Below are positions 3,001-24,151 of a stretch of 32,000 bases of DNA, one piece after another. The stretch covers positions 2,340,001-2,372,000 of the forward strand of contig OZ245049.1 of the NCBI GenBank assembly GCA_965224465.1, read 5' to 3'. Position 1 is the stretch's first letter. Each line of letters starts with the position of its first letter. The notes beneath the pieces were generated by a model. That model was given only the letters and a program-made list of their open reading frames with translations, did no database searches and was not told the origin of the DNA. The stretch comes from Flavobacteriaceae bacterium. GTDB lineage: Bacteria; Bacteroidota; Bacteroidia; Flavobacteriales; Flavobacteriaceae. Position numbers and translations under genes: made by a program.

Positions 3001-6000
3001 TCATCAGGTGCACTTACTTGAATCCTAAATTGATACCAAGTAAAGCTTTTTTGCGAACCATTAGCCAAGGTTACAGTCACCTCTTTTTTATCTACAATAT
3101 GATTCTTACCTACTACCAAATCGCTCTTATTTAGCGAAACTTTATACTGGTAATAGCTCTCTACAGAATTCATAGTTTGATCTTTATTGATATCTTCCGT
3201 ATCTGGATACGTAGTTGCAGAAGTAGGATAGGATTCTGGCGACAAATTATTGGTAGGAGAATTTCCCTGAGTGTTATTATAGCGTTTATACCTACTTAGT
3301 ATAGATGCCTTTTCACTATCGTATTTTCTACTTCTAAAATACATATAATTATCACTGGAAGGATCCTCTTTATCCGCAAACGCAGGGAAGAACTTCTTTT
3401 CTTCAGCATCATTTAATCCATCCAAACCAATATCTTGACTTAAGCGCTCACTATCATCAGAACTAAACGCATACAATAGGGATTGATTTGTAGGGATTTT
3501 ACCCCAAATAGTTTCTGCGGTATTCGCAGTACTTAATGGACTTTCTGGCAATCCATTTTCGTACATTTTACGACCGTCTTTTAAAACATCTTCGGAAATA
3601 TTACCTAAGTTAAAATACAATTCTCCTACTTGATTCGTAAGATCATTAGGATTTGTTCCAACAGGTAAACCTTCTGCTTCAGTAATGGAATAGTTTTCAA
3701 ATGGATCCATCATCCAAAACTGAATATACTCCACATTGGATTGTTGAAAATTGGTTGTTGTTAAAGGTCTTGTTATCCCTGCCCACCGATCTTCTGGATT
3801 TATAAATTGTCCTTGAGCATTAACATTATTAGTGTCATAATTATAACTCCCACGTTCATTTGGATAATAGGCCAAATCTAAAGTTCTAACAATAGTAGAC
3901 TGTGTAATATCTAAATCTTGCTCAGGAAATAATTCTTCGTACCTCACTCTTCTCACCTCTGCTCTAGATAATTCATTATTATCAATTCCGTCAGGTTTTA
4001 AAGAACCACCGCCATAAAACAATGGATCGATAATATACCAAGCCAACCTAGCTCTTTTATAGCCATAAGATAAATTATTTTCTATTCCTCCGAGCTTAAA
4101 TTTAGTTTGGTATTGAGGAGTACTTGCCATATGCCATTGCAAGGTCGATTTAATTTCTAATGGAATTTGAGACCCTTCAAAATCATCGATATACGAAGTT
4201 GCCTCCCCATCTTGTTCCACTCTTTTGGGAGATCCAGGTCTTAGATATGCAAAATCCCCTCGAATAGAAAAGTTTGACACGGCATCTGTATCTATATTTG
4301 GCAAATAATTCACCCATTTTGTAAATTTCGGAACTTCCGTTCCGTAACTAGCATTCAGTCCAAACATCGTATTAAAAATTGGTTCTTGACCAAATACTGA
4401 TTTTTGGGTAATGACTTTTTCCTTTAAACTTAAAAAAGTAGCCCCCGCAATAAAATTATCGGAGAATTTATGTTCAATATCTACCCCCAAAAAGCGTTTG
4501 GTTTGTAAATTAAAAACGGCATTATTTTCTACAGACACGTTGATTGGAGTATTGGAAGCTTCCAGAGCTGGGTCAATAATCTGAACACGACCTATTTGGT
4601 AATCCACAACATAATCAATCCCTTCTACTAATTCTCTACCTCCAGCAGTTACACGCACGGAACCTTTAGGAACATTAAACGCATTTAAAGGAATCCCATT
4701 AGATGTTTCTGACTTGTGATATCCAATAATTAAAAACTTATCTTTACCCTGATAACTGTTCTTTGCTTCCGATTTTGTTTCTTCGTACAGTTCCTTGAAA
4801 ACATAAATTTCATCAGCTGGATCTGTTAATTTCAATGCTAAATCATCACCAAAAGGTGCCACAGAAGGAAAAATAATATATCCTTTTTCAGAATTCACAG
4901 TAGCCCCTTCCACATAATCAAAGAATCCATCTCCTTCGGGCGTATCAAATAGACTTTGATCCAATCTATCCACACCAATCAGATTTAGCAATGTTCTATC
5001 TTTAACACCTGCTGTTTTAGCATTTTGCAAAATATTAACGGGCACCCCTGTAGCTGGATCTTCGTATACGACCTCTAACCTAAACCCATCTGGATTCATA
5101 TTATAAGCATTTAAAGCATATACATTCTTCATCATCAAATCCCACATAGGAATTTTTGTGCTTAAAATTTCACTCCTCAATAATTTTACTACAATATTAT
5201 TTGGATTTACGATACCGTCACTTGTAAACTCCCCCACTTTATACACCTTAGCATCTCCACTAATAGTATATTCAAAAGCAACAGCTAACACATCAGAATC
5301 GGTCAATCTTCTATTCAATGAGATAAAACCTAACTGCGGATGAATTTTGTATTCGTTGGGTAATAATTTACGTGCATTTTCCAATACAGAATAATCACGT
5401 CCTTGTTGCATTGCAAAAGGCGATAAGCCATTACTTACGGTTGAGATATTACGTACACTACCTGTTTCTGTAAGAATGCTTTCTATATTATTTGCTTGGT
5501 TTGATGGATATATTTGCCCTGGTTTAACTGTGACTGTTGCAGGCCCAATATTAGCTGGATTAAATTCTCCTATATCTGCCAACGCAACGATATTACGGAC
5601 ATTCAAGGTAGTTGAATTCCTATTTGTCACCCAAACTTCTACACGGGTAATACTAATGGGGCTATTTATTAAAGGATAATTTTTAAGCGCTATATTGTAA
5701 TTATCTCTAAAATAATGCGCTAAGAAAAAGTGTCGATTATCATCATAATCCGTTGTTTGTAATTCAAATTTATTTATAGTAGAACCACCCTGTGCAGTAA
5801 CAGATCTTGTTTGCGATTTTTGTTCTGCAAACACCCCTGTAATGGTAGTATTTCCAAATTTAAGTCTCGTTTTCACTCCAAATAAACTCTGCGCTCCTGT
5901 GATTAAAGAATTTTTTATAGGCATGCTTATATTCCCTACTTCGACCGCTTGTAAAATATCGTCCTCCGTGGGAGAATATTCTAACTTAATTAAATTCTGA

Positions 6001-6644
6001 AAATTAAAGGTAGATTGCGTATCATAATTTGCAGATACATTTAACCGTGTTCCGATTTTCGCACGAATACTCGCACTTATTTGTTGGTCAAAATCAAAAG
6101 TAAAACTACTTCTATTACGTTCTGATAATTGTGGGTTGTCAACTTTTTGATACAAAATCCCCATTTTTATATTTACAGAACCTGTAGGCTGTACTTCTAT
6201 TTCGTTTCCTCCAAAAAGACTTTCAAAAAAACTAGAATTCACATAGTACTTAGGCAGTAAATTCTTTTGAGCAGCAGCACTTCCTTTCTTTTTACTATTA
6301 AGGGCACTTAACTTCTCTTTATTATAAAGCAGCATATCTTTTTTTAGACGATATTCTTTATACTCCTCTAAAGTCATGTACACAGGTCGTTTAATTTCAA
6401 CGTTCCCCACTTTTTCGATAATTAAATATTTACCGAGAATAGGATCGTAAATAATTTCCTTTTTAAAGGGGTTTTTTAAAAACAACCCTCCATCTTTATC
6501 GTTCTTAAATTTGTATTTTAATTCTGAGATAGAATCCTTAGCACTCCCAGATTTTGGGGTGTCTTGAGCACTCAGAGTTGCTATAGAAAACACCCATAAA
6601 AGACAACCTAATAGGAAACCCGTTTTTAGTTGATATTTTTTCAA
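1..6644 (-). CDS. sprA: Gliding-motility / type IX secretion protein SprA (Sov family). About 2214 N-terminal codons are present; the C-terminus lies beyond the window start.
   Basis: Missing from the ORF track because no stop codon falls inside the window. Hand translation of the minus strand from TTG at 6644 gives a signal peptide, MKKYQLKTGFLLGCLLWVFSIATLSAQD. The same frame is still open at bases 1-120 (..VNLIEEFSPLLKVSLKMKNSVSFSGQINKDKGLTLNFNN). Internal stretches WYQFRIQVSAPDEV and MRMFLTKFKMPVVLRFGELQLVRGDWRRY match my recollection of SprA. No minus-strand ORF of 60 aa or more with an in-window stop is listed in 1-6650, consistent with one uninterrupted frame. Confidence 0.85.
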   Translation of the reverse strand, partial: MKKYQLKTGFLLGCLLWVFSIATLSAQDTPKSGSAKDSISELKYKFKNDKDGGLFLKNPFKKEIIYDPILGKYLIIEKVGNVEIKRPVYMTLEEYKEYRLKKDMLLYNKEKLSALNSKKKGSAAAQKNLLPKYYVNSSFFESLFGGNEIEVQPTGSVNIKMGILYQKVDNPQLSERNRSSFTFDFDQQISASIRAKIGTRLNVSANYDTQSTFNFQNLIKLEYSPTEDDILQAVEVGNISMPIKNSLITGAQSLFGVKTRLKFGNTTITGVFAEQKSQTRSVTAQGGSTINKFELQTTDYDDNRHFFLAHYFRDNYNIALKNYPLINSPISITRVEVWVTNRNSTTLNVRNIVALADIGEFNPANIGPATVTVKPGQIYPSNQANNIESILTETGSVRNISTVSNGLSPFAMQQGRDYSVLENARKLLPNEYKIHPQLGFISLNRRLTDSDVLAVAFEYTISGDAKVYKVGEFTSDGIVNPNNIVVKLLRSEILSTKIPMWDLMMKNVYALNAYNMNPDGFRLEVVYEDPATGVPVNILQNAKTAGVKDRTLLNLIGVDRLDQSLFDTPEGDGFFDYVEGATVNSEKGYIIFPSVAPFGDDLALKLTDPADEIYVFKELYEETKSEAKNSYQGKDKFLIIGYHKSETSNGIPLNAFNVPKGSVRVTAGGRELVEGIDYVVDYQIGRVQIIDPALEASNTPINVSVENNAVFNLQTKRFLGVDIEHKFSDNFIAGATFLSLKEKVITQKSVFGQEPIFNTMFGLNASYGTEVPKFTKWVNYLPNIDTDAVSNFSIRGDFAYLRPGSPKRVEQDGEATSYIDDFEGSQIPLEIKSTLQWHMASTPQYQTKFKLGGIENNLSYGYKRARLAWYIIDPLFYGGGSLKPDGIDNNELSRAEVRRVRYEELFPEQDLDITQSTIVRTLDLAYYPNERGSYNYDTNNVNAQGQFINPEDRWAGITRPLTTTNFQQSNVEYIQFWMMDPFENYSITEAEGLPVGTNPNDLTNQVGELYFNLGNISEDVLKDGRKMYENGLPESPLSTANTAETIWGKIPTNQSLLYAFSSDDSERLSQDIGLDGLNDAEEKKFFPAFADKEDPSSDNYMYFRSRKYDSEKASILSRYKRYNNTQGNSPTNNLSPESYPTSATTYPDTEDINKDQTMNSVESYYQYKVSLNKSDLVVGKNHIVDKKEVTVTLANGSQKSFTWYQFRIQVSAPDEVINDMNGFYSIRFMRMFLTKFKMPVVLRFGELQLVRGDWRRYTKTLSESIIPPEKLSNTDLQNFEVGVVNIQENENKKPIPYVLPPGIRREVLRGSTTLQQQNEQSLSIKVTDLKAKETRAVFKNVRVDLRMYKKLKMFLHAEGIVGQSTIENGDLTAIIRLGSDLNDNYYQIEKKLDISDFTAISKTDIWLPDNDVEAILEHFGKLKLKRFEAGIASNVQYPSFDDAPYDEIAGYIVRVKGNPNLAKIKTIMLGVRNNDKRFVKSGEVWFNELRIAGFDNEGGWATVVSADANFADFASVSASGRMETQGFGSIAQRVNERSKNDRKSYDVVANVNLGQLLPKRWGIQFPLNVSQSEEVSDPRFDPQYQDVLFEDAKDINPNSSKARDYTKRRSISFLNVRKNRSAENSKKPKFYNVENVSVSYAYNETFHKDYNVEKFSDKSVRASANYNYSFEPIILEPFKDWSFLKKSKYFDLIKDFNINFLPSTFAVNSNIVRSFNEQKSRDLVEIVGLSQLPTLRKRRYLFDWDYNIGYNITKSLQFNFRAANNYVYDSFRSTEDVELFDNFFEIGRPDKYHQSLSASYKVPLDKIPMFKFIRADYAYTADFDWQSASQSYVNQIGNTIQNSNTHTFNVDMDFKKFYKSVGLTKLLNKRKPVRKNGKKGKSKAKSIGAKVGQTFYDLITSVKKARLSYSENNGTLLPGYIPEVGFLGRDNFSGGLAPSFGFVFGSQIDIRNKAIENGWLISRGEDDPYYNKTYMQTHMEKLDFSIDIRPFKYLKIELSANKLLTSRTTQQLDVIDGVRSSKAPVTEFGSYSIGFNMLRTSFENTDKTFETFKRNRAIIAQRLSAESGQSVAGFGYTSQQVALPAFLAAYSGQDAANVKINPLRNIPIPSWKMTYKGFMKMKWFKKRFRSFSISHSYNSLYSITNFTNNLNYNSTKPYEVKDIIGNYQNKRLYTNVNLIEEFSPLLKVSLKMKNSVSFSGQINKDKGLTLNFNN

Positions 6645-6649
6645 TTTTT

Positions 6650-7231
6650 TTACAGTTTTTTTAGCGCCATTTTAATCAGTTGTTCAACCCTTAAATCGGC
6701 TTCTGATGCTAGTATTTTATCAATTACTTTTTCTGACTGCTTGCGAACAAACCCTAACACTTCTAATGCTGTTAACGCTTCTTCCTTGGTTGTATTGCTC
6801 AGACTTACAGGAACTTCATCAATTGTAAATGATTTTAATATTTTATCTTTCAAGTCTATAATTACTCTTTGAGCCGTTTTAACTCCGATACCTTTAACCG
6901 ATTGTATAATGTCTGCATTTCCCGTAGCAATGGCATTTTTAACCTCATCTGTAGACATAGAAGAAAGCATGGTACGTGCAATACTAGGACCAACTCCAGA
7001 CACAGAGATTAATAATTTAAATAAGGCACGTTCTATTTTTGTACTAAATCCAAACAAGGTTTGAGAATCCTCTTTTACAGACAAAAACGTATATAAAAAA
7101 ACGGATTCATCCTCAGGTAATTGCGAAAAAGTATTTAAAGATATATTTAAAAAATATCCAATTCCTCCAGTTTCAACAATTGCATATGTAGGATTTTTTT
7201 CTATTAATTTTCCACGAACATGGGTTATCAT
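6650..7231 (-). CDS. ruvA: Holliday junction branch migration complex subunit RuvA
   Basis: 193 aa. N-terminus MITHVRGKLIEKNPTYAIVETGGIGY, helix-hairpin-helix region GVGPSIA..IKGIGVKTAQRVI, and a C-terminal domain III-like tail. The stop codon lies 5 nt upstream of the sprA TTG start. Confidence 0.95.
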   Translation of the reverse strand: MITHVRGKLIEKNPTYAIVETGGIGYFLNISLNTFSQLPEDESVFLYTFLSVKEDSQTLFGFSTKIERALFKLLISVSGVGPSIARTMLSSMSTDEVKNAIATGNADIIQSVKGIGVKTAQRVIIDLKDKILKSFTIDEVPVSLSNTTKEEALTALEVLGFVRKQSEKVIDKILASEADLRVEQLIKMALKKL

Positions 7232-7507: not shown

Positions 7508-9787
7508 TTATTTCATAATAGCATTCTCTTGAGCATGTACTATTGCAACACTCGCAATATTTACAATTTCGTCTACACTCGCTCCAAATTGGATTAAATG
7601 TACAGGTTTTTTAAGCCCCATAACAATTGGCCCGATAGAGTCCATATCTGCGAATTCTTTCATTAATTTATAACTGATATTTGCAGATTCTAAATTTGGA
7701 AAAATCAATCCATTTACTTTTTTATCAATCAATTTAGAAAAAGGAAATTTTTCTTTAAGCATTCGTGGGTTTAATGCAAAATCAGCTTGTAATTCTCCAT
7801 CTACGGTAATATCTGGAAAATGTTTGTGCATATACTCTACTGCATCACTAACTTTTAATGTTTGTTCTACATCTGTGGAACCAAAATTAGAAAAAGACAA
7901 CATGGCTAAATTAGGTTCAAAACCAAACATACGCATTGTTTTCGCCATCATCGAACCTATCAAAGCCAATTCCTTAGCTGTTGGATTGATATTCATTGTT
8001 GTATCGGCAAAAAAGATAGGACCTCGTTTGGTCATCATAATATTGGTAGCTGCCGCACGTTTTACACCTTTTTGAATTCCAATAAGCTCTATCATAGGTT
8101 TTGCAACGGTAGGATAACTTCTAGAATATCCAGTAATCAAACAATCTGCTTGCCCTTCATTCACCATCATAGCAGCAAAATAATTACGCTCTCGCATCCA
8201 TTTTTGCGCATCCAAATAGGCAATTCCTTTACGTTGGCGTTTCTTCCAATATGCTTTTGCAAAGAGGTTCCTCCTATCGGTTTCTCCTGCACATTTTGGA
8301 TCAATAATATCAATATCATCAGCTTCAAAGCTTATCTCTTCCATCAAGCCTTTAATTTCCTCCTTATCACCTAATAATATAGGAATCCCAATTTTATCAT
8401 CGTAAATTATCTGAGCAGCTTTTAATACATCCAAATGATCCGCCTCTGCAAAAACAATCCGTTTAGGATCTGATTTTGCCTTTGAAACTAAGGTACGCAT
8501 CAATTTATTACTAGTACCCAATCGTTCCTCCAATTGCTCTTTATACGCATTCCAATCTGTAATAGGCTGCAATGCCACCCCAGATTCCATTGCAGCTTTC
8601 GCTACTGCAGGAGGCACTTCTGTAATCAATCTATTATCAAAAGGTTTTGGAATGATATAATCACGACCAAACTGTAAATTGGTTTCTCCATAAGTAATAT
8701 TTACTTGTTCTGGAACCGATTCTTTCGCCAAATTAGCAAGTGCATGCACTGCCGCAATTTTCATTTCTTCGTTTATTTTTGTCGCTCTAACATCCAAAGC
8801 ACCTCTAAAAATAAAAGGAAAACCTAGCACATTATTTACTTGGTTTGGATAATCCGAACGCCCTGTAGCAAAGATTAAATCGTCTCTAGTTTCTATGGCT
8901 GTTTTATAGGCAATTTCTGGATCTGGATTCGCCATTGCAAAAACAATAGGATCTTTTGCCATGGTCAATAGCATCTCTGCAGTCAAAACATCTTTTACAG
9001 ATAAACCAATAAACACGTCGGCATTTTTAATGGCATCTCCCAGGGTATATAAATCTAAACTAGTTGCAAACTCCTTCTTTTGGGAACTTAAATTCTCAAT
9101 ATCTTTTCGAATCACCCCTTTGCTATCACACATCACCACGTTTTCACGTATGACTCCAATTGCCATATACAAGCGTGTACAAGAAATAGCCGCAGCTCCC
9201 GCTCCGTTAACTACCACTTTAATTTTTGAAATGTCTTTTCCTGTAATTTCAACCGCATTTTTTAAAGCAGCCGCAGAAATAATAGCAGTTCCGTGCTGAT
9301 CATCATGCATTACCGGAATATTTAACTCCTCTTTTAACCTACGTTCTATTTCAAAAGCCTCTGGAGCTTTGATATCTTCTAAGTTAATCCCTCCAAAAGT
9401 AGGGGCAATGGCTTTTACTGTATTTACAAATAGGTCTACATCTTTGGCATCTACTTCTATATCAAACACGTCAATATCCGCAAAAATCTTAAATAATAAC
9501 CCTTTCCCTTCCATTACTGGCTTAGAAGCTTCTGGACCAATATCCCCCAGACCTAATACAGCCGTTCCATTTGTAATTACCGCTACTAAATTACTTTTAG
9601 CAGTATATTTATATACGTTATTCACGTCTTTTGCAATTTCTAAACAAGGTTCCGCAACACCTGGAGAGTATGCCAATGACAAATCACGTTTGGTTGCATA
9701 CTTTTTCGTTGGAACTACCTCGATCTTACCTGGCCGTGGTTTGGCATGATACAATAATGCCTCACGTCTTAGTTTTTTTTTATCCAT
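7508..9787 (-). CDS. maeB: NADP-dependent malic enzyme (malic enzyme domain plus C-terminal phosphate acetyltransferase-like domain)
   Basis: 759 aa. N-terminus REALLYHAKPRPGKIEVVPTK, then LSLAYSPGVAEPC and GTAVLGLGDIGP. The long PTA-like C-terminal half is typical of MaeB-type enzymes. Confidence 0.93.
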   Translation of the reverse strand: MDKKKLRREALLYHAKPRPGKIEVVPTKKYATKRDLSLAYSPGVAEPCLEIAKDVNNVYKYTAKSNLVAVITNGTAVLGLGDIGPEASKPVMEGKGLLFKIFADIDVFDIEVDAKDVDLFVNTVKAIAPTFGGINLEDIKAPEAFEIERRLKEELNIPVMHDDQHGTAIISAAALKNAVEITGKDISKIKVVVNGAGAAAISCTRLYMAIGVIRENVVMCDSKGVIRKDIENLSSQKKEFATSLDLYTLGDAIKNADVFIGLSVKDVLTAEMLLTMAKDPIVFAMANPDPEIAYKTAIETRDDLIFATGRSDYPNQVNNVLGFPFIFRGALDVRATKINEEMKIAAVHALANLAKESVPEQVNITYGETNLQFGRDYIIPKPFDNRLITEVPPAVAKAAMESGVALQPITDWNAYKEQLEERLGTSNKLMRTLVSKAKSDPKRIVFAEADHLDVLKAAQIIYDDKIGIPILLGDKEEIKGLMEEISFEADDIDIIDPKCAGETDRRNLFAKAYWKKRQRKGIAYLDAQKWMRERNYFAAMMVNEGQADCLITGYSRSYPTVAKPMIELIGIQKGVKRAAATNIMMTKRGPIFFADTTMNINPTAKELALIGSMMAKTMRMFGFEPNLAMLSFSNFGSTDVEQTLKVSDAVEYMHKHFPDITVDGELQADFALNPRMLKEKFPFSKLIDKKVNGLIFPNLESANISYKLMKEFADMDSIGPIVMGLKKPVHLIQFGASVDEIVNIASVAIVHAQENAIMK

Positions 9788-10007: not shown

Positions 10008-10250
10008 ATGAAATGTAACATTCTTCTTTTTGGAATTGCGGCTGACATTGTTGGCTCTAACGAATTAACCCTTCAAATAGCAGAAAATACAAATGTCTTT
10101 CAGCTAAAATCAATACTAACAAACAACTATAAAGCATTTAAAAATATTCATCAATTTGCAATCGCTATAAATGAATCTTATGCCAATGACGATGTTCTTA
10201 TTCTAGAAAATGACATTGTAGCAATCATTCCTCCTGTGAGTGGCGGTTAA
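10008..10250 (+). CDS. moaD: Molybdopterin synthase sulfur-carrier subunit MoaD (ThiS/MoaD family)
   Basis: 80 aa ending in the diagnostic C-terminal Gly-Gly (..IIPPVSGG). The size fits and other Moco genes are nearby. Confidence 0.85.
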   Translation: MKCNILLFGIAADIVGSNELTLQIAENTNVFQLKSILTNNYKAFKNIHQFAIAINESYANDDVLILENDIVAIIPPVSGG

Positions 10251-10275
10251 AAAAAGCCCACTTCTCCACCTTTTA

Positions 10276-10436
10276 ACACCAATTACAATCCAAAATAACC
10301 GATATAAATAGTTTGTTTTACGCTCTAGCACTGTTAAAATACAGGACGATAGCTATGTCTGTCCTTAGACATTTCGCCTAACTAAAACAAAAAACAATTC
10401 CAATTCTAAAACATCCCTTGGAAATGTATTTGGTAT
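10276..10436 (+). repeat. Copy A of the ~161-bp imperfect-palindromic intergenic repeat; the most diverged copy
   Basis: The plus strand aligns base for base, without gaps, to the reverse complement of 23000-23160. My hand count gives about 26 mismatches in 161. Termini are acaccaattaca...tgtatttggtat. It lies between moaD and the DUF5686-like gene. Confidence 0.8.
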
Positions 10437-10723
10437 CATATTCATATTTCTTGTGATTTTAAATCCCTTTCTATAGAAAACGATGCGCGTTCACATATAG
10501 CTTCCATGTATAGTACTGAAAATTTACATTTCTAACACTCATATTTCACGCACTGATTATATGTTCATTAAAATTCGTAAGCTACTTCGAAATTACGTCT
10601 CCAAAACCAGCTGTGTTGTCGGAATATTTAATTTCCTAAAAAAAACAAACAGCCAGACAAGCAATGTAAACTTAATAAAAACAGCATTTTAATACTTCTT
10701 GAGAAATATATTTAACATTTTTT

Positions 10724-13282: not shown

Positions 13283-13705
13283 ATGAACAATATTTCAACA
13301 TTAATCACAAGCGATGTATTAAGTTTAGACCGCTGTTACCGTTTTGTAGAATCACCACAATGTGGTGGAATTTCCATTTTTGTAGGAACAGTACGCAACC
13401 TAACAAAAGGAAAAAAAGTAATCCAATTAGATTTCTCTACGTACAAGCCCATGGCAATAAAAGAAATTGATAAAATAGCAGTAACTGCAATGAAGAAATA
13501 TGACATTACAAAAATAGCGATACACCATGCTGAGGGAAGCTTAAGTATAGGAGCTATTCCAGTGATTATTGCCGTTTCTTCTGCGCATAGAAATGCAGCG
13601 TTTGATGCGTGTCAATTTGCGATAGACCGCTTAAAAGAAACCGTACCTATTTGGAAAAAAGAACATTTTGAAAACGGTAAAACATGGGTAAATAGCCACC
13701 CTTAA
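13283..13705 (+). CDS. moaE: Molybdopterin synthase catalytic subunit MoaE
   Basis: 140 aa with GGISIFVGTVRN, AVSSAHRNAAFDACQFAIDRLKETVPIWKKE and a typical MoaE length. Confidence 0.9.
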   Translation: MNNISTLITSDVLSLDRCYRFVESPQCGGISIFVGTVRNLTKGKKVIQLDFSTYKPMAIKEIDKIAVTAMKKYDITKIAIHHAEGSLSIGAIPVIIAVSSAHRNAAFDACQFAIDRLKETVPIWKKEHFENGKTWVNSHP

Positions 13706-14203: not shown

Positions 14204-14332
14204 TCAAAATAATCAATGTGGATATTTTCTCTTTAGCCTCTTTTATCATTTTAAAACAAAAACATCGGTACACCATTAAAATGAGGGTTTAATTTATAAA
14301 CAATCATTTGGAAATTAATTTGGTAAAAAAAC

Positions 14333-17646: not shown

Positions 17647-18729
17647 CTAATAGCCTTCAATTCCACCCTTTAAACTATAAACCTCAATCATTGGATAGCA
17701 TTCTTTTATACGAAGGGTTGCGCTATAACTAGCATTTCCTTTCTGACAAACTACAATGTGCTTTTTAGAAAGTTCCAATTCCATTTTTTCAGGAGACAGC
17801 GTCTTCAAAAGACACGTTTTATCAATCCTAAAAGGATAAGAAACAATCGCATTGGCGATCACGGAAAGGACAACAATATCCTCATTTTCGAACGCTCTCT
17901 TCAATTCTTCAGCACTTATCAATAATTTTTTGTTCTGCAACTCACAATCGTCATTTTTATAATCTTCCTTATTAAAGAGCGCTCCAATCACTGATTTTAA
18001 TTGCGTGTGCTTTAACTTAAGTACAAAATTAGTGTTTCTAAGACTGTTATAAATCAATAATTTATCAATCAATAAATCACCTGTTTGAGTCGCTATTTTC
18101 AACACTTCATTTACCTGTAGCATGGCTATAGTTCCGACAATAGCATTCATAGTTCCCGCTGTTTCACAAGTTGGAATATCGGTTGCTATCACAGGAAAAG
18201 CATCCCTCAAATTACAACTGTAAGCGCCATCATCTTGCAAACAATTAAACGTAGCTACATAGCCATCAAATTTATACAAAGACCCATAGACTAATGGTTT
18301 CCCAAGTATTACACAAGCATCATTTATTAAATATTTTACAGACAAACGATCCGTACCATCTACAACAATGTCGTATTTTTTAATGATCTCTAAAGCGTTC
18401 GATTTTTCAAATGCAACAGTAGAAAATGTAACTTTTGTAAATGGAGCTCTTGCACTTATAAATGCTGCTAAAGTCTCCGCTTTTAAACTACCCACATCAT
18501 TTAAACTATAAAAAACTTGGCGATGAAGATTGCTTAAAGATACCACATCAAAATCTATTAGGTGTAATTCTCCAATACCACTTGCTGCCAAATGTACAGC
18601 AACAGGACTCCCCAAACCACCACAACCTACAACAAGTACTTTGGTTTTTTGAAGTTTCTCTTGTCCTTTTTCTCCTATTTCAGCTAAGGTAATTTGCCTT
18701 TTAAAGACCTCTGTGTACTCCGTTTTCAT
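17647..18729 (-). CDS. moeB: Molybdopterin-synthase adenylyltransferase MoeB (ThiF/HesA family) with a C-terminal rhodanese-like domain
   Basis: 360 aa. Nucleotide-binding VLVVGCGGLGSPVAVHLAASGIG and LSNLHRQ are present. The C-terminal ~90 aa carry an active-site-like loop VVCQKGNAS, comparable to the MOCS3/MoeZ rhodanese loop. Confidence 0.88.
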   Translation of the reverse strand: MKTEYTEVFKRQITLAEIGEKGQEKLQKTKVLVVGCGGLGSPVAVHLAASGIGELHLIDFDVVSLSNLHRQVFYSLNDVGSLKAETLAAFISARAPFTKVTFSTVAFEKSNALEIIKKYDIVVDGTDRLSVKYLINDACVILGKPLVYGSLYKFDGYVATFNCLQDDGAYSCNLRDAFPVIATDIPTCETAGTMNAIVGTIAMLQVNEVLKIATQTGDLLIDKLLIYNSLRNTNFVLKLKHTQLKSVIGALFNKEDYKNDDCELQNKKLLISAEELKRAFENEDIVVLSVIANAIVSYPFRIDKTCLLKTLSPEKMELELSKKHIVVCQKGNASYSATLRIKECYPMIEVYSLKGGIEGY

Positions 18730-18759: not shown

Positions 18760-19872
18760 TTAAGCATCCAATTCGTTTTTAGCAACATCAAATTCCTCAG
18801 GCGTATTAATATTTCTTATAAAATGATCCTCAACCTCAACAATTTCAACCTCGGAATTAATTAAGACTTTACGTGGACAAGAATAGCCCTGTGCTAAATA
18901 GCTCAATAAAACAGGGTAACTTTTAGGCTCCCAGATAGTAATCAACGGTTCCATAAACTCCTTAGACTTTCCTTTAATAGCCGTGGCAATTTTTGATGGA
19001 TTTCGTTTTTCTAACAACAACTTAATCAACGCTTCGGTTATAAACGGCAAATCTGTAGCGACTACCAACCATGCACTATTAGGATCTTTTTGAAAAGCAG
19101 AACAAATTGCTCCAAAAGGACCTAAACCCAAAAAGGAATCCCTTATAACGGCATTAGAGCTAACTTCCTGCCCTTCTCTAAGAGATAAAAATGTCTGTAA
19201 ATCACAAGCCTCCAGTAAATTTACTGCCACGTTGCGTTGTGGTCTTCCTTGAAATTCTAACAATCCTTTATCTGTTCCCATGCGAACACTTTTACCACCT
19301 GCTAAAACCAACCCTTTTACGGGAGCTCTTTTCTCTTCTATCAATGCTTTAACATGCTTAGAAATTCCATTAATATCGGAGAAATCATAGCATTTTAATT
19401 TTTTAATTTCTGGATATTTTTCTTCCAAAAAATCAAAATAAACAGCAGTATCATCGCGTTTTATTATAAATTGAATTTGATCTAATTGTTCCAAGCGCTT
19501 TAAAACAGAAGCTTTTTTCTGAGCATCCAAAATCAATATTTGTTTGCTCCCTTTATAATGATTTCCATTTATAAACGTAAAATCATACGCTGAGAAATCG
19601 ATCACTTGATTGAACGTATTTAGTCTTTTGTTTACTGATGACCTCAATGTTCCCTGAGAATGAAACACAAAATTATCAAACAATAAAGTTTCTTGGTTTT
19701 TTTCGTGAGAGGCATCCAAATAGGCAAGTTTATAGGAGGACAATTTTTCAGAAACCTGTGTCACTAGATTAGATATATCACTACACTTTGTGCCTAAAAT
19801 GGCTATTTCGTTAGGAGCATAGATATCGTTTTCTTTGCGAGATAATTTACTGTGCTTGGAATGTTTTTTCAT
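18760..19872 (-). CDS. mobA: Molybdenum cofactor guanylyltransferase MobA domain (C-terminal) fused to a MobB-like N-terminal domain
   Basis: 370 aa. Residues ~185-370 contain LVLAGGKSVRMGTDKGLL and VATDLPF, which are MobA / NTP_transf_3 signatures. Residues ~20-180 resemble MobB in layout, but the Walker A position reads ILGTKCSDIS. Confidence 0.82.
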   Translation of the reverse strand: MKKHSKHSKLSRKENDIYAPNEIAILGTKCSDISNLVTQVSEKLSSYKLAYLDASHEKNQETLLFDNFVFHSQGTLRSSVNKRLNTFNQVIDFSAYDFTFINGNHYKGSKQILILDAQKKASVLKRLEQLDQIQFIIKRDDTAVYFDFLEEKYPEIKKLKCYDFSDINGISKHVKALIEEKRAPVKGLVLAGGKSVRMGTDKGLLEFQGRPQRNVAVNLLEACDLQTFLSLREGQEVSSNAVIRDSFLGLGPFGAICSAFQKDPNSAWLVVATDLPFITEALIKLLLEKRNPSKIATAIKGKSKEFMEPLITIWEPKSYPVLLSYLAQGYSCPRKVLINSEVEIVEVEDHFIRNINTPEEFDVAKNELDA

Positions 19873-19897
19873 AATTAATCCTGTTATTTTTGAGTAA

Positions 19898-19948
19898 TAC
19901 TAATTAAATTGCCAAGTGACGGTTTAGAAATAGAATTATTTTTTGTTC
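19898..19948 (-). repeat. Partial (51-bp) tandem duplicate of one end of repeat copy C
   Basis: 19898-19948 (tactaattaaattgccaagtgacggtttagaaatagaattattttttgttc.) repeats 19949-19999 at a 51-bp period with a few substitutions. It ends 25 nt upstream of the mobA-fusion ATG. Confidence 0.7.
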
Positions 19949-20107
19949 TACCAATTAAATTCCCAAGAGACGGTTTAGAAATAGATTTATTTTTTGTTCT
20001 AGCTAAGCGGAAAACCTAAGGATAGCCGTAGCTATCGTTCTATTTTTCAACAACGCTAGAACGTAAAATAAACTATTTATATCGGTCTTTTTGGGTTTTA
20101 ATTGGTA
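19949..20107 (-). repeat. Copy C of the ~161-bp imperfect-palindromic repeat
   Basis: Aligns without gaps to 23000-23160; I estimate roughly 90% identity by eye. It contains the conserved central hairpin gatagc-cgta-gctatc and overlaps the 3' end of moaC. Confidence 0.8.
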
Positions 20108-20588
20108 GAATAGCCTTGCGATTTATATCCGACTTTCCACCTGATTTCCGCAACAGACGAACCTGTTCTATGACCATATCTTGAGAAATGCTTTTACACA
20201 TATCATACACCGTAAGAGCCGTAATATTAGCGCCGGTAAGCGCCTCCATCTCAACACCTGTTTTTCCCTCTATATAAACGGAACACACAATTTTTATATG
20301 GGTCTTACTTATCAATTCTATGTCTATATCTACCCCGTTTATCAATAACGGATGGCACATGGGAATTAATTCTGACGTTTTTTTGACCGCTTGAATCCCT
20401 GCAATAATTGCAGTTTGAAAGACAGGTCCTTTTTTTGTGCGCAATTCGTCTCCCTGAAAACATTGGATAATTTCTTTACCTAGGAACATCAATGCCTCTG
20501 CTGTAGCACTCCGTTTGGTAATTTGTTTTGCAGCAATATTCACCATTTTCGGTTGGTTTTTATCACTTATATGTGTAAAATCACTCAT
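20073..20588 (-). CDS. moaC: Cyclic pyranopterin monophosphate synthase MoaC
   Basis: 171 aa with KMVNIAAKQITKRSATA, IPMCHPL and EMEALTGANITALTVYDMCK. The last 11 codons (LPIKTQKDRYK) and the stop lie inside repeat copy C. Confidence 0.93.
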   Translation of the reverse strand: MSDFTHISDKNQPKMVNIAAKQITKRSATAEALMFLGKEIIQCFQGDELRTKKGPVFQTAIIAGIQAVKKTSELIPMCHPLLINGVDIDIELISKTHIKIVCSVYIEGKTGVEMEALTGANITALTVYDMCKSISQDMVIEQVRLLRKSGGKSDINRKAILPIKTQKDRYK

Positions 20589-20599
20589 AATACTCTTAA

Positions 20600-21802
20600 T
20601 TAAAGATTCCTATATAAAATAACAGGAAAAACAGTTCCTTTTTTAAACACTGTAATATGGGCAGGTAATTCTAAAAACGCATCCGAACTTACAAGGTTCA
20701 CCAAATCTCCAGAACCATTGCCTTTTTGTGGGTATGCCATCAATACTCCTTGTTCGTTTTTTAAAGCTACTTGCAAAAAATAAGTCATGGAAGGTTTAAA
20801 AATTAAATCTTCACCTAACACGGCTTTCATTGTGTTTTCTGACGGTAAGCCTATCGACTTGAGCAACCAAGGACTAAAATATTTCAAACAACTCGCATAA
20901 GTAGAAACTGGATTCCCAGGGAAAGCAAAAATAGTTGTCTTCCCTTTTTTACCAAACCAAAATGGTTTCCCAGGACGTTGTTTTACTTTGTGAAATAATT
21001 TATCGACACCCAATTGCTTCAAAACTTGAGGAATAAAATCAAATTTACCTTTTGACACTGCCCCACTAAACAGTAATACATCATACTCCTTTAAATAGCC
21101 GTCTATCAAAGCTGTTAGTTTTTCCTTATCATCCGAGATATGTATGGACTGAGCATGAATTTGAAACGTTTTTAAAATAGAAACTAAAGCGTGTACATTA
21201 CTGCGTCTTATTTGATATTCTAAAGGAATTTCAGTTACTTCTACAAGTTCATCACCTGTAGAAATAACCAAGACTTTAGGAAGTCTAGCCACTTTTACCA
21301 TCGTTTTACCAACGGTAGCTAATACAGCAATCTCTGCAGAAGAAACAAGTGTATTTTCGGGAATTAACACATTGTTTAATTCCTGATCCATTCCTTTTTT
21401 ATGTACATTTCTAAAATAAAAAACATCGTAGTCTTGAACAGTAGCAACTCCGTTTTCTATAGACAATAACTCATAAGGAATTACTGCGTCCGTGTTTTTT
21501 GGAAGTACAGCCCCCGTCATCGCTTCGACACAATGCAAGGGATTATCAAGAGTTAGCTGGGGACTACCAGCAGCTTGGACAGCCTCAACAAAATATGATC
21601 GATGTCCCTTTTTATAACTTTGAGAACAAATGGCAATACCATCCATACTCACACGATTAAAGGGAGGTAAATCACGGTCAGAAACAATTGTTTCCTTTAA
21701 AACTCGACCTACAGCATCCTGAAAAGGAATCCTTTCGACGCCCCAATATTCGGTGCTTTGTACTATTATTTCTAAAGCTTCTTTACTTGTTATTAAATCC
21801 AT
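20600..21802 (-). CDS. moeA: Molybdopterin molybdotransferase MoeA
   Basis: 400 aa with DLPPFNRVSMDGIA, VISTGDELV, LLFSGAVSKGKFDF and FAFPGNPVS. Confidence 0.92.
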   Translation of the reverse strand: MDLITSKEALEIIVQSTEYWGVERIPFQDAVGRVLKETIVSDRDLPPFNRVSMDGIAICSQSYKKGHRSYFVEAVQAAGSPQLTLDNPLHCVEAMTGAVLPKNTDAVIPYELLSIENGVATVQDYDVFYFRNVHKKGMDQELNNVLIPENTLVSSAEIAVLATVGKTMVKVARLPKVLVISTGDELVEVTEIPLEYQIRRSNVHALVSILKTFQIHAQSIHISDDKEKLTALIDGYLKEYDVLLFSGAVSKGKFDFIPQVLKQLGVDKLFHKVKQRPGKPFWFGKKGKTTIFAFPGNPVSTYASCLKYFSPWLLKSIGLPSENTMKAVLGEDLIFKPSMTYFLQVALKNEQGVLMAYPQKGNGSGDLVNLVSSDAFLELPAHITVFKKGTVFPVILYRNL

Positions 21803-21814
21803 TATTTAACTATT

Positions 21815-22807
21815 TTAACCTCCAATGGTAGACATACTTTCAGAAACAAGGCTTGATCCTCGCATTTTTTCAGCAACAAACCCATTTTTAGGTTTGTGAT
21901 GGACCGTTTTAATAAATAATTGTTTCAAATCATCATCACTAGCCCCTTTTCTAATAAAATCACGAATATTAAACACCCCTTGATCAAACAGGCAATTTTT
22001 AAACAAGCCTGTTGCAGTGATGCGAATACGGTTACAATCTCCACAAATTGTCCGGGTATATGCTGGAATAATACCAAAAGTACCTTTATTGCCTTTTATC
22101 TTAAAATTATGAGACGTGGAAGATATTCCATTGTCTACTTTTTCTATATTTTTAAAAAAGTGAGTAATGTGATTGTATATCTTATGGTAATCCCAAAGTG
22201 TATCCGTTTTACGTAGACCTATTCCATTAAATGGCATTTCTTCAATAAACCGAACTGCAATATTTCTATCTTTGGTTAACCTTACAAAATCAACAATTTC
22301 AGTTGTATTGACACCAGGTATAATCACAACATTCAATTTCAATTTTATGGAGCTACCTTCTATAGCATCCATTGCTTTTAATACTTTATCAAAGGACTTT
22401 CTTCGAACAATGGTATTAAACACCTCTGGGTTTAAACTATCTATACTCAGGTTGATGGCATTGATCTTAATTTTCTCTAACGCACGAATATGTTGTCCAA
22501 TCAACGCTCCATTTGTAGTGATATTAATCTGTTCCAATTTTTTATTAAAGGAAAGTGACTCCAAAAAATTCACGAAATCTTTTCTTACAAAAGGTTCTCC
22601 ACCCGTTAAGCGTACTTTATTAACTCCGAGTTCTGAGAGTACTCTAGTAATACGGTACATTTCTTTAAATGTCAATAAATCGGATCTATCCACAATTTTT
22701 ATTCCCTCAGCAGGCATACAATACTGACACCGAAAGTTACATCTATCCGTAACTGCCAATCGTAAATACGAGATTCTCCTACCAAATTTATCCAACAATA
22801 GATCCAT
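21815..22807 (-). CDS. moaA: GTP 3',8-cyclase MoaA (radical SAM)
   Basis: 330 aa. The CNFRCQYC radical-SAM cluster motif, LTGGEPF, and a C-terminal CGDCNRIRITATGLFKNCLF second-cluster region ending in ..IGG are present. Confidence 0.95.
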   Translation of the reverse strand: MDLLLDKFGRRISYLRLAVTDRCNFRCQYCMPAEGIKIVDRSDLLTFKEMYRITRVLSELGVNKVRLTGGEPFVRKDFVNFLESLSFNKKLEQINITTNGALIGQHIRALEKIKINAINLSIDSLNPEVFNTIVRRKSFDKVLKAMDAIEGSSIKLKLNVVIIPGVNTTEIVDFVRLTKDRNIAVRFIEEMPFNGIGLRKTDTLWDYHKIYNHITHFFKNIEKVDNGISSTSHNFKIKGNKGTFGIIPAYTRTICGDCNRIRITATGLFKNCLFDQGVFNIRDFIRKGASDDDLKQLFIKTVHHKPKNGFVAEKMRGSSLVSESMSTIGG

Positions 22808-22837
22808 AGCTTTTTTTCTTTATCGGGGAGGTAATTT

Positions 22838-22998
22838 ATACCAAATACATTTCCAAGTAACGGTTTAGAAATGGAATTATTTTTTGTTTTAACTAGATGG
22901 AAAATCTAAGGATAGCCTTAGCTATCGTTCTGTTTTCCAACAACGCTAGAACGCAAAATAAACTATTTATATCGGTCATTTTGGATTGTAATTGGTAT
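22838..22998 (-). repeat. Copy B2 of the ~161-bp imperfect-palindromic repeat, proximal to moaA
   Basis: 161 bp, differing from 23000-23160 at only 3 positions. It starts 30 nt upstream of the moaA ATG. Termini are ataccaaataca...tgtaattggtat. Confidence 0.85.
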
Positions 22999-22999
22999 T

Positions 23000-23160
23000 A
23001 TACCAAATACATTTCCAAGTAACGGTTTAGAAATGGAATTATTTTTTGTTTTAGCTAGACGGAAAATCTAAGGATAGCCTTAGCTATCGTTCTATTTTCC
23101 AACAACGCTAGAACGCAAAATAAACTATTTATATCGGTCATTTTGGATTGTAATTGGTAT
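23000..23160 (-). repeat. Copy B1 of the ~161-bp imperfect-palindromic repeat, in tandem with B2
   Basis: Separated from B2 by a single T at 22999, giving a 162-bp period. The central stem-loop is ggaaaat (23061-23067) .. gatagc-ctta-gctatc (23073-23088) .. attttcc (23094-23100). It ends 6 nt from the stop of the upstream YeeE/YedE gene. Confidence 0.85.
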
Positions 23161-23166
23161 TATACG

Positions 23167-23583
23167 TTAATGAGGTAAAAACCGTTTGAATTTACCATAT
23201 AAAAACGTTCCTATTAAAGCACCAGCAATCACGATCAAAATAGAAAAAACACCATTCCCTATCAATACAAACATAGGCCCAGGGCAAGCACCTGCTAAAG
23301 CCCAACCTAGCCCAAAGATAAGACCACCAAACAAGGCTCTTTTCCATTTAAATTCTTTATCTGGAACACTGATTTTCTCTCCTCTTATATTTTTTATAAT
23401 TCCTTTTCTAAAAAGAAACATTAACAATGCCCCAAGTCCTACTGCAGAACCAATCACTCCATACATATGAAAAGATTGAAATTTGAACATTTCGTAAATT
23501 CGAAACCAAGATACGAGTTCACCTTTGGTCATAACAATACCAAAAAGAATTCCAATCACTAAAAATTTTAACTGTTTTATCAT
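23167..23583 (-). CDS. YeeE/YedE family membrane protein (sulfur-transport-related half-protein)
   Basis: 138 aa with about 4 predicted TM helices. GWALAGACPGP is the conserved Cys-containing loop of DUF395/YeeE-YedE repeats. Confidence 0.8.
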   Translation of the reverse strand: MIKQLKFLVIGILFGIVMTKGELVSWFRIYEMFKFQSFHMYGVIGSAVGLGALLMFLFRKGIIKNIRGEKISVPDKEFKWKRALFGGLIFGLGWALAGACPGPMFVLIGNGVFSILIVIAGALIGTFLYGKFKRFLPH

Positions 23584-23590
23584 CTTTTTC

Positions 23591-24151
23591 TTAAAATATT
23601 ACGGGAAAAATTAGCCAAGTCATAATAATACCTCCAATAAAAAAACCAACGACTGCAATCAGAGAAGGAATTTGCAAATTACTCAATCCTACAATTGCGT
23701 GACCAGAGGTACAACCGCCAGCCCATCGGGCTCCAAAGCCAATACAGAGACCTCCCATTAAAAGTAAGACAACTCCTTTAATACTTCCTACAGCTTCCAA
23801 TCCAAACAACTCGTTTGGCACGATCGTAGCACCTGCATTTTGAATACCCAAAACACTTAATTCCTTAATAGTTTCTGAATTCAATGCAATCGGAATATCA
23901 GAAGACAAATAATTAGAAGCTATAAAACCACCGATTACAGCCCCCATCAAGAAAACAATATTCCAGAAATTTTGTTTCCAATCTTTTTTAAAATAATCAC
24001 TGTATTTTCCAGCTCCTCCCATAGTACAAAGGGTTTCCAAATTAGAAGAAACACCAAATACCTTTCCGAAAAAATACAACAAAAACATGACTGCCACAAT
24101 ACTAGGCCCCGCCACATACCATTCCCATGGTTGAGAAATAAACTCTATCAT
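23591..24151 (-). CDS. YeeE/YedE family membrane protein (sulfur-transport-related half-protein)
   Basis: 186 aa, multi-TM. RWAGGCTSGHAIVG is a YeeE/YedE signature. It lies 7 nt upstream of its partner gene. Confidence 0.85.
   Translation of the reverse strand: MIEFISQPWEWYVAGPSIVAVMFLLYFFGKVFGVSSNLETLCTMGGAGKYSDYFKKDWKQNFWNIVFLMGAVIGGFIASNYLSSDIPIALNSETIKELSVLGIQNAGATIVPNELFGLEAVGSIKGVVLLLMGGLCIGFGARWAGGCTSGHAIVGLSNLQIPSLIAVVGFFIGGIIMTWLIFPVIF

Follow-up and report, generated by a model that had tools for sequence, protein, structure and literature searches.

In the window, as we call the whole 32-kb stretch of Flavobacteriaceae DNA analysed here, several copies of one near-palindromic repeat lie between the genes of a Moco cluster, which raises the question whether the repeat serves the pathway that surrounds it or is a mobile element. 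The initial annotation had offered both readings, an ERIC/MITE-like non-autonomous mobile repeat and an intercistronic RNA element of the Moco operon. We consider it very probable that the repeats are copies of a small non-coding MITE, recently inserted, rather than a control element of the Moco pathway. The genes of the cluster were identified by Pfam as MoaD/ThiS (10008-10250, + strand), MoaE (13283-13705, +), MoeB/ThiF (17647-18729, -), a MobA-like protein (18760-19872, -), MoaC (20073-20588, -), MoeA (20600-21802, -), MoaA (21815-22807, -) and two YeeE/YedE-type Sulf_transp proteins (23167-24151, -), which agrees with the gene names assigned earlier. A search for tRNA and tmRNA genes found neither.

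Copy A (22839-22997, + strand) and copy B (23001-23159, + strand) stand head to tail between the YeeE/YedE genes and moaA. They had been described as two near-identical units, and the repeat finder and the alignment both gave 98% identity for the pair (22839-23159). The strand of copy A that reads TACCAAATACATTTCC...TTGTAATTGGTA, hereafter the A strand, is the + strand of the window and is antisense to yeeE and moaA. Direct reading of the flanking triplets located TTA at 22836-22838 and 22998-23000 for copy A, and at 22998-23000 and 23160-23162 for copy B, beside which the stop codon of a yeeE-type gene is found (23167-23169). The layout is TTA-[A]-TTA-[B]-TTA, with one middle TTA common to both copies. 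Copy C (19949-20107, + strand) lies between moaC and the mobA-like gene and has unmatched flanks (TTC/GAA). It has either inserted into, or become fused with, an older copy that is now partly deleted; of this older copy a 51-nt 5'-terminal fragment (19898-19948, + strand) abuts copy C and has TAA as its left flank (19895-19897). Copy D (10277-10435, - strand; 83-84% identity) is a reverse complement between moaD and the DUF5686 gene. The genes on either side of it are on the + strand, and its A strand is again antisense to them; read along the A strand, TGA lies to its left and TTA to its right.

The repeat finder reported a 162-nt direct-repeat family at 19946-20107 (87%), 22836-22997 (100%) and 22998-23159 (98%), a segment at 10274-10440 that is inverted relative to the other three copies (80-84%), and a separate 54-nt family that adds the 5' fragment at 19897-19950. 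All further copies and the fragment known from the initial annotation were in this way found again, and an alignment of the five window pieces together with direct reading matched its coordinates. The earlier view that the window contains no other copy held for full copies, none of which was detected by a profile search of the 32 kb. It has to be qualified by a candidate in a spacer that had not been listed, at ~14252-14325 on the - strand, where 16 of 18 TIR positions match and a TAAAACAAAAA block is present. Judged by these matches, the candidate is, tentatively, probably a degenerate left-half remnant of the element. It occupies a 129-bp spacer; the relatives described below are without this spacer, and the two genes overlap there.

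The core of the element measures 159 bp (TACCAA...TTGGTA), and the 162-bp period of the repeat is the core plus a 3-bp TTA direct repeat. The repeat had thus been recognised correctly, with a unit length of 161 bp that is refined here. Imperfect terminal inverted repeats (TIRs; TACCAAWTAMATTTCCAAG...) of ~19 bp had also been noted; they are real, clear over ~19 bp and recognisable over ~37 bp. When the right end was compared with the reverse complement of the left end, similarity could be discerned over the same ~37 bp, and the entire element is a loose, imperfect palindrome nearly from end to end. The element is without an ORF and non-coding, and its variants range from 74 to 181 bp, well inside the ~50-800 bp that are usual for MITEs. 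A 17-mer within it, AAACTATTTATATCGGT, occurs four times in the window, where 0.29 occurrences are expected.

For comparison we used related loci from NORP167 (GCA_002400885.1) and GCA_016764435.1/SAMN07571232, which are North Pond Flavobacteriaceae MAGs, from two JGI metagenome contigs and from Logan contigs. Their gene order matches that of the window (rplU-rpmA-kdtA-crp-yeeE-yeeE-moaA-moeA-moaC-mobA-moeB ... moaE-DUF5686-moaD-maeB-ruvA-sprA), with an identity to the window of 81-82% for MoaA and 71-72% for the DUF5686 protein. All three insertion sites of the window were empty in the four to five closest syntenic relatives compared. The spacer between yeeE and moaA measures 29-33 bp in the relatives and 359 bp in the window, that between moaC and mobA 13-26 bp and 200 bp, and that between moaD and the DUF5686 gene 124-168 bp and ~525 bp, respectively. 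If both copies and two TTAs are removed from the yeeE-moaA spacer of the window, 35 bp are left, which is the size seen in the relatives. A profile HMM built from 11 copies found no copy in ~261 kb of the relatives' loci (overlapping copies included). NORP167 and the JGI sample Ga0209395 carry members of the family elsewhere, yet their Moco loci are empty. The search for empty sites in related strains that the initial annotation had proposed was therefore positive at all three loci, with spacers of 13-33 bp at two of them. Strict conservation at orthologous Moco positions, which it had named as evidence against mobility, is clearly not what the relatives display.

Copies at unrelated loci were sought by scanning 185,579 species genomes with the exact 17-mer. 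The matches listed were mostly chance matches, and the true copies among them came from NORP129 (at least three contigs), NORP150, NORP167 (at least two contigs) and a Bacteroidota MAG (L066). In metagenome contigs a strict two-block pattern gave 0 matches, and a looser pattern gave one full copy and two partial copies. Plasmid, phage and viral (IMG/VR) collections yielded no copy. The full copies from NORP129, NORP150, NORP167, the Bacteroidota MAG (L066) and a JGI contig (L082) are 72-92% identical and have unrelated flanks: their alignment to the window is confined to the element, and the flanks of the outside copies do not align. As all outside copies were found via the exact 17-mer, the sample (11 full copies) is small and biased, and the invariance of the 17-mer outside the window was not counted as constraint, because this would be circular.

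The neighbours of these copies are diverse. One copy lies between ahpC and ahpF (L069), antisense to its co-directional neighbours; those near rplT (L041), between MBL/rhodanese-type genes (L009) and inside a Y1 transposase gene (L066) are sense to theirs. Two more are situated between convergent genes, one at the stop codon of an amidophosphoribosyltransferase-like (purF-like) ORF (L015) and one near lipA (L006). With the three window loci, all antisense, added to these, the copies follow no rule of orientation. The single orientation relative to transcription that had been described earlier stands for the three window loci; it does not extend to the other genomes, which have both orientations, convergent sites and one intragenic site. 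Copies scattered over unrelated spacers in both orientations, the finding that the initial annotation itself had set against a specific link to Moco, are what these related genomes contain.

Decayed and variant forms were also found. A mini copy of 74 bp (L032) has lost internal sequence but kept both ends and its TTA flanks. Two genomes (L006, L041) share a subfamily marked by an insertion of 23 nt, at L078 a right end stands alone just past a stop codon, and L079 is a deletion derivative. Together with the nested fragment in the window, such forms are debris typical of MITE families.

The triplets flanking the element were identical in 8 of 11 copies. They read TTA/TTA in seven (A, B, L015, L069, L066, L082 and the mini copy L032) and TAA/TAA in one (L006), and match at two of three positions in two (CAA/TAA in L009, TGA/TTA in copy D); the rearranged copy C alone is without a match. 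With the element read in one orientation, TTA flanks outnumber TAA flanks 8:2. At L066 a Y1_Tnp gene is split by the element, with the N-terminal 44 codons on one side and the remainder on the other. Removal of the 160-bp element and one TTA gave a 183-aa ORF in which the Pfam Y1_Tnp match spans the junction, and this restored ORF aligned with nine 183-aa homologues over 183 gapless columns at 67-83% identity. The reconstruction represents an empty site and shows a 3-bp target-site duplication. MITEs occupy several non-homologous sites per genome, and in the window four full copies at three loci plus a fragment were found. A non-coding, TIR-bounded, 3-bp-duplicating, dispersed and polymorphic element of this kind is a MITE. 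The reading as a non-autonomous mobile repeat is thus supported by the empty sites, the copies at unrelated loci and the target-site duplication.

RNA folding of the copies reproduced the long imperfect hairpin with a GATAGC-NNNN-GCTATC cap that had been predicted before. The apex stem-loop GATAGC-CTTA-GCTATC, which caps the hairpin, lies at 22911-22926 in copy A, 23073-23088 in copy B and 20021-20036 in copy C. The minimum free energy of copy A was -47.3 kcal/mol (z -6.7) for the + strand and -38.7 kcal/mol (z -4.7) for the - strand; the two strands of copy D gave -41.1 and -28.4 kcal/mol. In the 11-copy alignment the consensus hairpin comprises 54 pairs, with 94% of the cells paired as compared with 39-50% in slid controls; helix 1, in which the TIRs pair (TACCAAWTAMATTTCCAAG with its complement), was 95% paired. 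Altogether 11 of the 54 pairs were changed on both sides, internal helices included, while shuffles gave 5.6 +/- 1.6 (0/500), in a test that has its own caveat, namely that related sequences may outdo shuffles without any structure. Most of the double changes set a single subfamily (L066, L082) apart from the other copies, so that the number of independent covariation events is small. The terminal helix of any transposon should covary, as its two ends have to be bound by one and the same protein.

The two strands are not equivalent. In every one of the 11 copies the strand TACCAA..ACGGTTTAGAAAT folds better than its complement, by 5.6-20 kcal/mol, and 55 G.T cells stand against 11 A.C cells. 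At each of the three window loci this strand runs antisense to the Moco genes, an arrangement that argues against selection of the element, in this operon, as a sense-strand mRNA structure. The palindrome far exceeds what is needed as a transposase binding site, and a plain 'junk MITE' model does not predict either the compensatory changes or the strand asymmetry. A terminator scan detected a weak terminator-like site at the apex on both strands, with a 6-bp stem and a distant, interrupted T run; a U tract after the long hairpin was not found. A sigma-70 promoter scan, whose model does not cover Bacteroidota promoters, returned 9 sites versus 13.8 expected, and no perfect TAnnTTTG motif was seen by eye on either element strand. 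At the gathering threshold Rfam assigned no family to the window and the element regions. At E <= 10 there were only miRNA-precursor, CRISPR-DR and Flavo-1 matches far below threshold, reflecting the hairpin shape, and the Moco riboswitch (RF01055) gave no covariance-model match even at this value.

These observations have to be weighed against other explanations. An intercistronic RNA element specific to the Moco operon, controlling stability, processing or read-through of moa/moe/mob transcripts, would account for the fact that all full window copies touch Moco genes in one orientation relative to transcription, and for a very stable hairpin whose helices carry compensatory changes. It is hardly credible, since the three orthologous positions are empty in every relative compared, though those genomes carry the element elsewhere, and other copies stand beside ahpCF, a purF-like gene, lipA and rplT, with one inside a transposase gene. 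The mixed orientation outside the window, the antisense position of the better-folding strand and the lack of both an Rfam and a Moco-riboswitch match point the same way. Mobile origin followed by co-option, either of the copies in this operon or of the family as a whole, as RNase III or stability sites in polycistronic mRNA or as a source of structured antisense or small RNA, we regard as unlikely. The extent of pairing (94%) and the 11 pairs changed on both sides would agree with it, the strand-specific G.U excess is consistent with it, and so are the antisense position of the better-folding strand at the three window loci and the insertion into very short intra-operon spacers rather than large promoter-bearing ones. 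Set against this are the subfamily split behind most of the double changes and the caveat on shuffles given above, the covariation of TIRs that any transposon should have, the failure to identify a promoter, and the relatives, which function without the element.

The strand asymmetry bears on two further possibilities. A Y1 (HUH) transposase may have moved the hairpin in single-stranded form, as an IS200/IS605-derived PATE or a REPIN-like doublet, in which case insertion would have occurred 3' of a TTA target and an element-borne terminal TTA would make the duplication merely apparent. A hairpin over the whole length, the same strand folding better in 11 of 11 copies, the dominance of TTA over TAA flanks in one orientation and a head-to-tail tandem, as expected from orientation-specific insertion, would all suit such a mechanism, and a target TTA plus an element-borne TTA restores the L066 ORF equally well. 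It nevertheless appears quite improbable: genuine terminal inverted repeats, 19 bp or longer, bound the element, the triplet in L006 is TAA on either side and hence varies jointly, as a duplication should, and REP-type short palindromes with a flanked RAYT gene were not seen. The sole nearby Y1 gene in L066 is interrupted by the element and not flanked by it, and the strand asymmetry may be an inheritance from a master copy. It is also conceivable, although improbable, that the family goes beyond a passive MITE and that selection on one particular strand maintains the hairpin over its full length, either for ssDNA-hairpin transposition that yields a 3-bp TWA duplication or as a structured RNA module delivered by transposition. 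This idea draws on the G.U excess, seen in every one of the 11 copies, and on compensatory changes within the internal helices. If so, structured antisense or processing sites would have been placed at three points of the Moco operon, and a stop-codon-like TAA target would rewrite gene 3' ends (moaC, and the purF-like ORF in L015). A separate candidate, the association with a RayT-type gene (L066, L117), was rejected, given that the gene is interrupted by the element, that no second copy lies within 17.5 kb and that a 3-bp duplication is present.

Taking the repeats as recently inserted MITE copies, we propose the following history. Mobilisation would have taken place in trans by a transposase encoded outside the window, most likely of the DDE type with 3-bp staggered cuts at T(T/A)A, a family and TWA target preference that we infer. 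No TIR pair enclosing a transposase was present in any locus examined, the window included, and an autonomous partner with matching TIRs was found neither in these loci nor in the plasmid, phage and viral collections. After the lineage had separated from its nearest sequenced relatives, the element would have entered short spacers of the Moco cluster on at least three separate occasions. For the tandem pair the best account, in this presumed order of events, is that a second element landed in the TTA that the first had duplicated, leaving TTA-el-TTA-el-TTA; given the dominance of TTA flanks in one orientation, a head-to-tail arrangement is what such a re-insertion would produce. Alternatives for the tandem pair are unequal exchange or an IR-IR junction / tandem-dimer route, a pathway known for the IS3 and IS30 families.

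At the moaC-mobA site a nested insertion was probably followed by a deletion. The moaC ORF now ends in copy C: its 3' end (20073-20109, - strand), with the final 11 codons and the stop codon, is element sequence. MoaC has 171 aa in the window versus 158-162 aa in the relatives, where it ends ...GGKSDINR(I/M) followed by 13-26 bp; the C-terminus in the window reads ...GGKSDINRKAILPIKTQKDRYK. The 10 nt preceding copy C (AAGGCTATTC) resemble the element apex (AAGGCTATCC), and the 51-nt fragment beyond it, flanked by a TAA of its own, represents the end of a further copy. In the proposed history the deletion would have taken the original moaC stop codon, so that the ORF terminates inside the element.

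The insertions favour tiny intra-operon spacers and gene 3' ends. Two lie 4 nt and 23 nt past stop codons, one is at a stop codon (L015), and one replaces the stop codon (moaC). This preference fits both a TAA-like target and selection against hits in promoter-bearing spacers. For three insertions within 13 kb of one gene cluster, local hopping, high copy number and chance are all possible explanations, and the link between the element and the Moco genes is coincidental or local. An effect on Moco expression, if any, would be a by-product of insertion and not the reason for the existence of the element. Likely candidates for such by-products are two or more long hairpins in the yeeE-moaA mRNA, which might act as RNase III or stability determinants, the weak terminator-like apex and a MoaC that is longer by 13 aa.

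Among known systems, bacterial MITEs such as the Correia elements of Neisseria and the MITEs of Porphyromonas gingivalis are likewise small, non-coding and AT-rich, with TIRs and short duplications. They also share dispersal, nested and truncated copies, presence or absence between related genomes and an intergenic, co-transcribed location. Correia elements duplicate TA, unlike the present element, which duplicates 3-bp TWA. The ERIC/IRU elements of enterobacteria are imperfect palindromes of ~127 bp and resemble it in their whole-length palindrome, in size, in their occurrence in transcribed intra-operon spacers and in a transcript that can fold into one long hairpin; they belong to another phylum and are unrelated in sequence, and here a clear 3-bp duplication and empty sites indicate recent transposition. 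REP/REPIN-RAYT systems and IS200/IS605-derived PATEs are also hairpin-forming extragenic repeats with a strand-asymmetric structure, but the element differs from them by its long TIRs, by a duplication that co-varies on both sides and by the disrupted RAYT gene in L066. With the Moco riboswitch (RF01055) it shares the location upstream of moaA in a Moco operon; no covariance-model match was obtained, and the orthologous position is empty in relatives.

The 3-bp duplication is a feature in common with PIF/Harbinger-Tourist MITEs and bacterial IS5 relatives, and membership would be by the duplication alone. A TTA/TAA target is typical of Tourist MITEs, and IS1031-type IS5 members duplicate TNA; 3-bp duplications are also made by some IS5-, IS3- and IS30-family elements. 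For PIF/Harbinger the 3-bp target-site duplication is characteristic (PMC2213677). The P. gingivalis MITEs BrickBuilt, MITE239 and PgRS have IS5-type GAGACC... TIRs, which do not resemble the element TIR TACCAAWTAMATTTCC (PMC4596501). We found no published description of the 159-bp family, which is new; MITEs as a kind are already known, occurring by the thousand in Flavobacterium and Bacteroidota according to a survey and abundant in Flavobacteriales/Bacteroidota (PMC11602168), and the anatomy is textbook.

The result removes a false lead: the locus holds no new regulatory RNA for Moco. What it adds is a compact MITE family, active until recently, in little-studied Flavobacteriaceae from marine and subseafloor settings; the family makes a defined 3-bp TWA duplication, shows tandem as well as nested insertions, and in one case has replaced the stop codon of a gene with its own sequence. 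In practice the element can serve to trace recent genome dynamics and to mask sequence during annotation, and it is a starting point toward its transposase. Moreover, the three insertions in one operon are a natural test of how transcribed long hairpins affect polycistronic mRNAs in Bacteroidota.

The moaD-DUF5686 spacer contains more than the element. Copy D lies 23 nt past the moaD stop codon, and in addition to it the spacer has ~230 bp of sequence without a counterpart in the relatives. Within these ~230 bp a 74-nt segment (window 10574-10645), which was considered as a candidate RNA gene or ORF, is 74% identical to DNA adjoining the element in L006.

Copy C of the 159-bp palindromic, MITE-like element, which lies between moaC and a mobA-like gene, was found to contain the end of the moaC ORF (window 20073-20109, - strand). 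The MoaC protein is 171 aa long in the window compared with 158-162 aa in the syntenic Flavobacteriaceae relatives, because the original stop codon of moaC has been replaced by an element-derived tail, LPIKTQKDRYK*. A stop codon was also met at the copy in L015, a locus outside the window, where the duplicated TTA to the right of the element (L015 5540-5542) reads, on the opposite strand, as the TAA stop of a 632-aa amidophosphoribosyltransferase-like ORF. The insertion point of this copy is exactly the stop codon of the ORF. In the Bacteroidota MAG locus L066 the element interrupts a gene for a RayT-type Y1 (IS200-like) transposase after codon 44 (L066 7118-7832, the same as L117 9709-10423), and the public annotation of the split gene in L066 holds its C-terminal 140-aa part only.

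Two different MAGs, NORP129 (L006) and NORP167 (L041), carry element copies with a common 23-nt insertion (TACTTGTGCCCAACTTGATTGGG-like) directly ahead of the conserved 17-mer of the element (4582-4604 in L006). We concluded that the shared insertion marks a subfamily of the element, of which the copy in L079 is a deletion derivative.

The tandem copies A and B meet in a palindrome composed of the right TIR, TTA and the left TIR (window 22946-23054), and two alternative folds are therefore possible for the tandem. The same palindrome accounts for the weak matches to Rfam 'miRNA precursor' families on both strands. A putative degenerate left half of the element was located at approx. 14252-14325 on the - strand, with 16/18 matches in the TIR. 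It lies in a 129-bp spacer (window 14204-14332) that separates an AAA_33 kinase-like gene from the ORF after it; these two genes overlap by 4 bp in relatives.

Inside the extra ~230 bp adjoining copy D, a 74-nt segment was observed (window 10574-10645, + strand). It is 74% identical to L006 4337-4410, approx. 60 nt from the NORP129 element copy, and is absent from the moaD-DUF5686 spacers of relatives. Neither an Rfam match nor an intact ORF was detected in it. The segment may be a second small repeat, either co-travelling with the element or inserting beside it.

At the left end of the window, an open frame of >2219 aa (1-6650, - strand) continues past the window end; synteny with the locus L084 identifies it as sprA (SprA_N), followed by ruvA (6650-7231) and a malic enzyme gene (7508-9787). 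Other insertions also set relatives apart from the window (L085 8575-12838; L083, L116). One relative holds a reductive-dehalogenase-like VcrB/Fer4/FMN_bind/AraC block flanked by the DUF5686 gene and moaE, and others a trehalase-MFS-TonB receptor-LacI block with maeB and moaD on either side.
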